A model generated the notes under the pieces. That model saw nothing but the letters and a program-made list of their open reading frames with translations. It made no database searches and had not been told where the DNA came from. A program made the translations under genes and the position numbers. This document shows, piece by piece, positions 17,306-19,292 of a DNA stretch of 64,000 bases (position 1 is the stretch's first letter; the number at the start of each line of letters is the position of its first letter). The stretch lies in NCBI RefSeq assembly GCF_058153355.1, contig NZ_CM177019.1; one strand, 5' to 3'.

Positions 17306-18718
17306 ATGTCTGTAGTGATATCAGGTGCGCTGACTGATGGCGCAGGTATCCCCATGTCCGGATACCATATTATTCTGAAATCCCGGGTAAACACCCCGGA
17401 AGTGGTGATGCACACTGTTGCTGATGTGATGACAGGAAACGATGGTGAATACTGTTTCCATGCGCGGACTGGAAAATATGGTGTGTATCTGAAACAGGAC
17501 TGGCACAACGAGTACAACGTTGGCGACATTGCTGTATATGAGGACTCAAAGCCCGGCACGCTGAATGAGTTTCTGATTGCTCCTGATGAGGGCGACCTGA
17601 AACCGGATGTCGTCAAACGCTTTGAGGAAATGGTGGCGCAGGCGCAGCAGAGCGCCGGGGCCGCAGCCGGAAACGCACAGCAGACGGCGCAGGATGTGGC
17701 GGCAGCCGCAACGGCCCGTGATGATGCACAACGTTTTGCGGAGAATGCCAGACAGGATGCAGTTGCCACTGCAGAGGACAGAAAGGCCACTGCGGAAGAC
17801 GTGAAAAGCACAGGGAAAAACGCCGTCTTATCCGGTCAGCGTGCACAGGCAGCCGCAGGTTATGCCCGCGCAGCAGAACAGGCCAAAAATGACATTGATG
17901 CTGCGCTGACCGGCACTCTGAAAACGGCTAACCATCTGTCAGAAATTGCGGCAGCAGGCGAAAAGGCACAACAGAAGTCCCGGGATAATCTGGGGCTGAA
18001 AAGTGCGGCCACGATGGAAGCACAGAGCGACATTTACGACCGGACAAAAGGCCGTCTGGCGATACCCGGCGCATTCGGCTTTGGGCGTGCTTTTCTGTAT
18101 GAAGATGTTATCCGTTTTGACGCTAAGGATGATTTCCTGGCCTGGGTAAGGAATGCGCTGCCAGGTGAATATTCCGTTGCTGGCCCCTACGGCATCATCA
18201 TACCCGACACACGGTTTGAAGGGGTGCTCAGCATCCGGTGGACTGATGCACGCCCTGAGACAAGGGAACCGCGGCGCAGAGCCAAATCCCTTACTTTTTA
18301 CAGCATTAACGGCCCCATTTATCACGCCCCCTACCGGCTCTTATCTGGATTTCTGACTGACTGGGTGAAAATAAATATAACCACAGAAGATATTATTTAC
18401 AGAATCGTGGCGAGCTCTGTCCGCAACAGATGGGGAGACCCTGACATTGGCGGGCTGATTATTGCTGCGTACCAGGGAGAAGCTGACGGTGATAAAGACA
18501 TCAGACTTGTCAGGGGGCGGTCATACAGAGGCTCACGACTGGGACCGGTGGGGATTTCAGCGCCCTGTACTCCCACCGGAACGCATATAGTATACCCACA
18601 ATATTTCATTACGGGATGTTCAGAGCATTCATTACCGGGGTCATATTGCGCCCTGTCCGGGGGGCCGGATACATATGTCTCTGGCGCAATGCTTGGGCTT
18701 TTTATTCGCACATCGTGA
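17306..18718 (+). CDS. second side-tail-fiber-like protein, possibly degenerate at the C-terminus
   Basis: N-terminal ~120 aa are paralogous to Stf (ISGALTDG...YEDSKPGTLNEFL); C-terminal region is unusual and overlaps the next ORF. Confidence 0.5.
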   Translation: MSVVISGALTDGAGIPMSGYHIILKSRVNTPEVVMHTVADVMTGNDGEYCFHARTGKYGVYLKQDWHNEYNVGDIAVYEDSKPGTLNEFLIAPDEGDLKPDVVKRFEEMVAQAQQSAGAAAGNAQQTAQDVAAAATARDDAQRFAENARQDAVATAEDRKATAEDVKSTGKNAVLSGQRAQAAAGYARAAEQAKNDIDAALTGTLKTANHLSEIAAAGEKAQQKSRDNLGLKSAATMEAQSDIYDRTKGRLAIPGAFGFGRAFLYEDVIRFDAKDDFLAWVRNALPGEYSVAGPYGIIIPDTRFEGVLSIRWTDARPETREPRRRAKSLTFYSINGPIYHAPYRLLSGFLTDWVKINITTEDIIYRIVASSVRNRWGDPDIGGLIIAAYQGEADGDKDIRLVRGRSYRGSRLGPVGISAPCTPTGTHIVYPQYFITGCSEHSLPGSYCALSGGPDTYVSGAMLGLFIRTS

Positions 18719-18728
18719 GGAATGCACC

Positions 18729-19292
18729 GTGGAAATTAAAAAAATCATTAATCCCCGTTATACCGAAAGTGGTGCAGTAGACTGTGACGTTTTTTTTGAC
18801 GACAGGGCCCCGGCAGTCCCCTACACAGCCACCGCTGATGATGTCGCTCCGACGGGTCAGCAAATCTGGCAGGAACTGCAAAGCGGCAAATGGGGTGAGA
18901 TAGCCCCATTCACTGTGACACCAGAAATGCTGGAAGCGGCCAGAGAGGCCAGACGTCAGGGAATTGAAGCATGGCGCACAGAACAGGAGGCGAAGCCGTT
19001 CACGTTTGAATGGAACGGTCGCACGTGGAACGCTGGCCCCAACTCACTGGGCCGCCTTTATCCGGTGGTAATGGCTGCGAAATCCGACATTGTACGGGAC
19101 GTGATGACGTGGGGTGATGCCGATAATCAGCAGGTGAAACTGTCGATGCCGGAACTGGAAGAACTGGCGGCAGCAATGGTGCAGGCGCAGGTCGATCGCA
19201 ACGATGAGATTTATCGCCGTCAGCGTGAAATGAAAGAGGAGCTGAGCGGTCTGGATGATTTGGCTTCAATTCGGGCGTTTGACGTTGAGTAA
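18729..19292 (+). CDS. second tail fiber assembly-like protein
   Basis: Probable GTG start at 18729 with GAGGAA upstream (ORF opens at 18675); follows the second fiber gene. Confidence 0.45.

Follow-up and report, generated by a model that had tools for sequence, protein, structure and literature searches.

Does the second tail fibre gene that lies behind the stf and tfa genes of a lambda-like prophage encode a working fibre, or is it the leftover of an old exchange, and how did it come to be there? The question is raised by 64,000 nucleotides of contig NZ_CM177019.1 (RefSeq assembly GCF_058153355.1), a stretch referred to throughout as the window, which carries the right arm of such a prophage. 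A first-pass annotation had described a fibre gene and a helper-like gene downstream of stf-tfa, with ORF coordinates and a gene order that are both correct, and had offered the pair as a possibly degenerate receptor-binding module from an earlier recombination. That observation is confirmed in part, and its interpretation is likewise supported in part. The reading preferred here, at a probability of roughly 0.8, is that the two genes specify an accessory side tail fibre, still intact, and a DUF4376 protein as its probable chaperone, and that they form a cassette that recombined into a lambda-like prophage which is now defective.

The gene for the gpJ homologue (10165..13562) is split in two by a 1-nt deletion, as judged against intact genes that are 99% identical to it. 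It is followed by lom (13629..14228) and by stf (14287..16734), whose 815-aa product has a PF08400 domain, a Phage_fiber_2 repeat and, below the threshold, a weak match to Gp34_trimer. The next gene, tfa (16737..17282), is canonical, with PF02413 on its product at E 1.5e-26. The second side tail fibre gene (17306..18718, plus strand; 470 aa plus stop) is intact, and behind it the longest ORF of the DUF4376 gene runs from 18675 to 19292 on the same strand (205 aa). A convergent ipaH-type virulence gene with LRR_TTSS and NEL domains lies on the minus strand at 19472..21223. It is separated from the DUF4376 gene by a plus-strand, terminator-like hairpin with a T-run at 19408..19436 (a stem of nine pairs, seven of them G-C, then GTTTTT), identified as a match to the consensus only. 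A scan of 16600-19600 for sigma-70-like promoters returned no site, which fits read-through from a late operon but is uninformative, and no tRNA gene marks the attachment site within the window. Because of the gpJ frameshift the prophage is probably dead, in that its tail tip is probably non-functional and infective particles are probably no longer made, and the fibre and DUF4376 pair is probably idle in its present host.

The N-terminal part of the fibre is the most readily classified. The PF08400 model, with its cut-off of 26.6 bits, scores residues 1-131 at 230.7 bits (E 6e-69), and its E value is about 1e-69 for Stf and the second fibre alike. The earlier proposal that the two N-termini are paralogous holds well beyond chance, at 39% identity over 139 residues (E 5e-23). 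Within this region, residues 1-92 (17306..17581, plus strand) were matched by phmmer to residues 1-92 of chain Ta of PDB entry 9e7m at E 2e-16, and are a collar, or tail-attachment, domain. Chain Ta is a 94-aa chain labelled 'Tail fiber protein' whose sequence closely resembles the N-terminus of the Stf in the window; from this resemblance and the Ur-lambda paper it is taken for the Stf N-domain of Ur-lambda. The Ur-lambda tail has a collar of 12 Stf N-domains where gpV meets gpM, and this collar bears four trimeric fibres (PMC12617516). Residues 1-92 are homologous to the lambda Stf N-domain and would mount the fibre on the tail. A weaker N-terminal match is found to the collar spike of Vibrio phage XM1 (7kjk), at E 5e-6 with the full-length query and 0.003 with residues 1-135 alone. 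The N-domain of this myophage spike, gp40, attaches to the neck (PMC10457771). As in the window's fibre, the matching N-terminus of XM1 gp40 is followed by an alanine-rich segment; the relationship is significant but distant, the rest of the two proteins is unrelated and the XM1 tail is contractile. By analogy, neck binding in XM1 suggests where the fibre may be seated in phages of the phiP27 and P2 types.

The alanine-rich shaft (about residues 101-224; 17606..17977, plus strand) is variable in length and presumably forms a coiled coil, with 39 alanines in residues 101-235; the fibre as a whole is probably a trimer. Minus-strand ORFs over this region, such as 17284..17811, were considered and are taken as by-products of GC-rich coding sequence. 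The 10-mer GGCAGCCGCA occurs twice in the shaft, at 17701 and 17848, and the allele of a baseplate-type prophage of enteroinvasive E. coli (EIEC; L002) lacks exactly the 147 nt that separate the two copies, in frame. All length differences from this 95%-identical allele, namely the 147-nt segment, a 6-nt indel and a 3-nt indel, preserve the frame, and fibre alleles of 374-422 aa have lost parts of the shaft. Shaft length varies through in-frame deletions between short repeats. The general plan of collar domain, linker, long shaft, distal tip and small helper gene downstream is shared with Stf/Tfa of Ur-lambda, whose Stf is about 774 aa long. The fibre in the window, in contrast, is much shorter, lacks Phage_fiber_2 repeats and a gp37-like tip, ends in a tip of an unrelated family and is followed by a DUF4376 helper instead of a PF02413 Tfa.

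The distal 246 amino acids (residues 225-470; 17978..18715, plus strand) make up the two-lobed tip, a putative receptor-binding domain, with lobe A at residues 225-360 and lobe B at residues 363-470. Among its relatives lobe A is present in one to three tandem copies and lobe B is always last. A domain search of the 470-aa protein placed PF08400 at the N-terminus; neither Pfam nor NCBIfam has a model over the tip, NCBIfam is blank for all four fibre and helper proteins, and a sequence search of the PDB gave no match for the tip or for the DUF4376 protein. The C-terminal region had been called unusual, which is apt as far as these two databases go, but the tip belongs to a well-populated family. 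An exhaustive HMMER search collected 97 clusters at 50% identity, and the match to phrog_2636 has an E of 3e-208, fibre residues 179-469 aligning with positions 269-567 of the 568-position profile. The domain is carried by proteins of 250-1,030 aa, which nearly always end with it, and members of the family terminate in register at the C-terminus; an AlphaFold2 model of the tip is confident (pLDDT 89.2). The N-terminal partners of the tip include PF08400, P2-type PF12571, long Stf-type shafts and the fibre of Av-05 (Vequintavirinae); fusion to several unrelated anchors points to a swappable receptor-binding module, and the tip presumably binds a cell-surface receptor. Since the tip and its DUF4376 partner form a compact module that is joined in nature to four or more types of fibre N-terminus, they are a candidate exchangeable receptor-binding unit for phage engineering. 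The practical gains are modest, and the pair does not challenge current understanding.

PF14301 (DUF4376) scores 59.1 bits (E 7e-16; cut-off 25) on the product of 18675..19292, which, unlike that of the upstream gene 16737..17282, has no match to PF02413, so the helper is not a canonical Tfa. The description of the gene as assembly-like is borne out by position and analogy; a relationship to Tfa is not. [quoted passage not shown] The alignment of phiP27 L57 begins at the residue of this codon, and all 15 homologues from outside Shigella and EIEC in the alignment of DUF4376 proteins start there or one Met codon earlier. The match to phrog_1141 also begins in this region, residues 17-205 of the 205-aa ORF aligning with positions 2-190 of 194. 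A Shine-Dalgarno sequence, GAGGAA (18717..18722, plus strand), can be read 6 nt upstream of the GTG. At other loci the DUF4376 product is 187-188 aa long and its gene overlaps the last 1-4 nt of the fibre gene. The upstream extension (18675..18728, plus strand) is the conserved C-terminal end of the fibre read in another frame, is absent from the non-Shigella/EIEC homologues in that alignment and is probably untranslated. The true start is most likely GTG 18729, giving a gene of 18729..19292 (plus strand) and a putative fibre chaperone of 187 aa, and the 44-nt overlap would then be an artefact of ORF calling. Annotations of 205-207 aa in Shigella and EIEC would be explained by the GTG start of this lineage together with a chance in-frame ATG upstream; they should read 187 aa, with no overlap of the fibre gene.

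The function of the partner is suggested by distant DUF4376 proteins. In Alteromonas phages, gp27 of V22 is required for an active fibre (PMC7289586) and gp9 of A5 is a related 'cap'-like chaperone (PMC10579305), both proteins being reported to resemble intramolecular chaperone domains in fold, while the Campylobacter CJIE1 H-fibre works only if it is co-expressed with its DUF4376 neighbour (PMC7882524). In all three systems, as in the window, the gene lies directly behind the fibre gene and the DUF4376 domain is in the C-terminal half of the protein. The window's protein is somewhat smaller (187 aa against 195-239 aa), has no detectable similarity to the others outside the Pfam domain and accompanies an unrelated tip. 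Its AlphaFold2 model (pLDDT 88.9) combines three strands at the N-terminus with a helical body and two beta-hairpins, and this predicted architecture fits the description in PMC10579305. Association with the tip is close, in that each of the 11 phage records whose tip is full-length, including that of lytic Av-05, has a DUF4376 homologue starting 3-15 nt past the end of the tip match. By analogy the partner is probably the chaperone of the fibre, and to judge from its distant relatives it would trimerise at the distal tip and aid folding of the fibre. Across loci DUF4376 proteins are 75-80% identical and the accompanying tips only 32-45%, an order of conservation that is unexpected for a chaperone matched to one specificity; if the DUF4376 protein is a chaperone, it must read an invariant core of divergent tips.

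Fibre and DUF4376 genes appear, from their distribution, to be a self-contained cassette that moves between phages. They are found at the right ends of phiP27, Rac-SA53, P2-like prophages and the ipaH prophages of EIEC and Shigella, and the tip and DUF4376 combination is also present in Av-05. The usual homes of the cassette are after the main fibre/tfa pair or after gene D. Comparison with Rac-type pairs, which the first-pass annotation had proposed, was informative; tail3/tail4 of Rac-SA53 and L56/L57 of phiP27 have the same arrangement as the window, namely tfa, a 23-nt gap, a PF08400 fibre, a DUF4376 gene and the right end of the prophage. In phiP27, an Stx2e phage, the DUF4376 protein L57 is 77% identical to that of the window. 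The L56 tip, in contrast, is only about 33% identical, so that the tip in the window probably has a different specificity, and the shaft has diverged. The two phages also differ in setting, phiP27 having a baseplate-type tail and no ipaH, whereas in the window the cassette follows lambda-type J-lom-stf and is itself followed by ipaH. An exact-sequence look-up in a collection of 15 billion found neither protein of the pair, and the nearest alleles, 96-97% identical, are from Shigella; by these comparisons the pair is a new allele of an enterobacterial family already annotated, with putative function. An invertible segment of the Mu G, P1 C or e14 P type was also considered and rejected. The two fibre genes are each complete and read in the same direction, inverted repeats are no longer than 26 nt (77% complementarity) and do not bracket the pair, and no ORF in 13000-22500 reads as an invertase in the ORF list.

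This distribution invites a broader reading, which is put forward tentatively and is rather improbable, that the pair is a plug-in cassette serving contractile (phiP27- and P2-type) and lambda-type tails alike through a generic, ring-forming collar, with the DUF4376 protein as a generalist, prefoldin-like capping chaperone. Such a chaperone would recognise a few invariant residues of divergent tips and not one specific tip. If so, a live hybrid phage would have two different fibres on one 12-site collar.

Blastn against the EIEC baseplate-type prophage aligned window 15806-17710 at 94.8% identity and 17848-20254 at 96.6%, so that near-identity begins inside stf and ends inside ipaH; the upstream part of the shared block (15806..17282, plus strand) comprises the 3' portion of stf and tfa. 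On the other side of the boundary, lom and the N-terminal portion of stf match ordinary lambdoid prophages. The whole lom-stf-tfa-fibre-DUF4376 block is in none of 5,426 complete E. coli genomes. By these alignments the cassette would have arrived through a single recombination inside the 3' portion of stf, at about 15806, which explains a lambda-type prophage with two collar-domain fibres. The exchange would have replaced everything rightwards of that point, the incoming DNA from a baseplate-type phage bringing the stf 3' portion, tfa, the fibre and DUF4376 genes and ipaH. An origin by recombination, as first suggested, is thereby upheld. The right end of phiP27, including its annotated attR, matches window 21718-21835 and 22149-22345 and so also flanks this prophage; since these matches lie beyond ipaH, the latter was inserted between the cassette and the prophage end.

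The suggestion that the module is degenerate, a decaying leftover with a tip that no longer works, fares less well and is considered unlikely. Fibre residues 1-470 align with residues 1-490 of phiP27 L56 (48% identity overall, about 85% in the collar domain), and the match to phrog_2636 reaches the end of that profile as the L56 alignment reaches both ends of the protein. The window copy is thus a full-length member of an intact fibre family, with no frameshift, stop or truncation. In an alignment of 38 tip sequences it keeps 10 of 10 invariant columns and has the listed residue at 21 of 21 near-invariant ones, and the fold is predicted with confidence. Invariant positions of the tip include those of PGAFGFG and LFxR. 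Only about three substitutions are private to its allele, by inspection of the sequences compared. The signs of decay come from the surroundings and from substitution patterns. The gpJ gene of the host prophage is frameshifted, the alleles of 374-422 aa lack parts of the shaft, and in Shigella assembly GCA_031665835.1 the three sister fibre copies are dead, each cut by an IS on the fibre side and two of the three also lacking 1 nt at the site that corresponds to 18513. Between the tip and its EIEC allele there are 34 nonsynonymous and 5 synonymous substitutions (omega 2.3, P = 0.054 against neutrality), and between the tip and the L007 allele 7 and 0. The flanking genes, compared with EIEC, have omega values of 0.15 (tfa) and 0.30 (DUF4376) and a higher dS, a mosaic pattern. 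As the tip value is not significantly above neutral, decay is not demonstrated; positive selection on the tip is likewise not claimed, with P = 0.054 and only two to three alleles. The Shigella/EIEC lineage in general shows signs of relaxed or unusual selection, and the allele in the window may have lost some function. The second fibre gene is nevertheless intact, an ordinary phage gene and not a decayed remnant, and under the preferred reading the gpJ frameshift leaves the pair whole but likely idle.

A further alternative, somewhat less probable again, is that of a working two-fibre phage, in which Stf and the second fibre would share a collar of 12 sites and four trimers, the pair would be under selection here and the virion would have two receptor specificities. 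The collar domain is present in both proteins, both fibre genes and both helper genes are intact, and the collar architecture is known (PMC12617516). Against this, a functional tail tip could probably not be built with gpJ frameshifted, the collar domains of the two proteins share only 39% identity, the cassette usually accompanies baseplate-type and not lambda tails, and the arrangement, the product of one recombination, is in none of the complete genomes surveyed.

Least probable is co-option by the bacterium, with the DUF4376 gene or the pair kept beside ipaH for the benefit of the host, where it might provide the island with signals for transcription or play a tailocin or adhesin role: the DUF4376 gene is intact by ipaH in all three islands of the Shigella genome in which the fibre copies are dead, and related orf-191 genes occur in short P-Eib (eib-carrying) prophage fragments, but the three Shigella copies are near-identical, share the same 10 mismatches with the window and are not independent, ipaH is convergent with the terminator-like hairpin in between, the omega of 0.51 for the DUF4376 gene, compared with L007, comes from only 13 changes, and the placing of effector genes beside tail-fibre genes where a prophage ends is a known and passive arrangement (PMC3530523). 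For the preferred reading, that of a phage cassette carried along with its prophage, the same neighbourhood has a use of its own, in that the left flank of chromosomal ipaH genes can be recognised as the remains of a fibre and chaperone cassette from a phiP27-like phage, and such remains help to reconstruct how ipaH islands were acquired.

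The DUF4376 protein, the putative chaperone encoded next to the second side tail fiber gene (window 18729-19292), shares 75-80% identity with its counterparts at three other compared loci (L001, L003 and L011), while the neighboring fiber tips share only 32-45%. It is far better conserved than the putative receptor-binding domains that it accompanies, which for a cognate chaperone is unexpected. In the fiber tip itself (18011-18715), nearly all substitutions that distinguish the Shigella and EIEC alleles are non-synonymous (34N/5S; 7N/0S), a pattern that, on the alleles compared, relaxed constraint and diversifying selection could explain equally well.

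A single Shigella genome, GCA_031665835.1, carries three islands in which the DUF4376 gene lies beside ipaH (L007, L008 and L009). All three are cut off by IS elements on the fiber side, and two of them have an identical 1-nt deletion in the fiber tip; DUF4376 is intact in every one, and the same set of 10 mismatches to the window recurs in all three. In the DUF4376 allele of the baseplate-type EIEC prophage (L002, 8260-8843), one short segment differs from the consensus of the family (LAKSVTAQTHMAWS vs AAKSDTARDVMAWG), to which the window's allele conforms. The 1-nt indels in this divergent segment are paired, which suggests compensating frameshifts in the EIEC sequence.

In the window, the IpaH-family T3SS E3 ligase gene lies on the minus strand at 19472-21223, with LRR_TTSS and NEL domains and a low GC content (0.38) in its LRR half. 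Placed as it is between the DUF4376 gene and a phiP27-like prophage end, it looks like a moron insertion. That right end (21718-22345) resembles the right end of the Stx2e phage phiP27, with phiP27's annotated attR covered by the resemblance, and contains a DinI-like ORF on the minus strand (21824..22072). The chromosome resumes with an ORF at 22427..22993, which, reading the sequence, we take to be yecD-like.

Upstream of the pair, stf (14287-16734) is a chimera in which lambdoid N-terminal two-thirds are fused at about 15806 to an EIEC-prophage-like 3' portion, the latter with 95% identity to the fiber of the baseplate-type EIEC prophage. The crossover region is likely 15806-16470, an overlap zone common to the lambdoid and EIEC-prophage families. 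Compared with intact, 99%-identical E. coli genes, the gpJ homologue (central tail fiber, 10165-13562) has a 1-nt deletion that breaks it in two near 12960-13060, and the window's prophage is probably defective.
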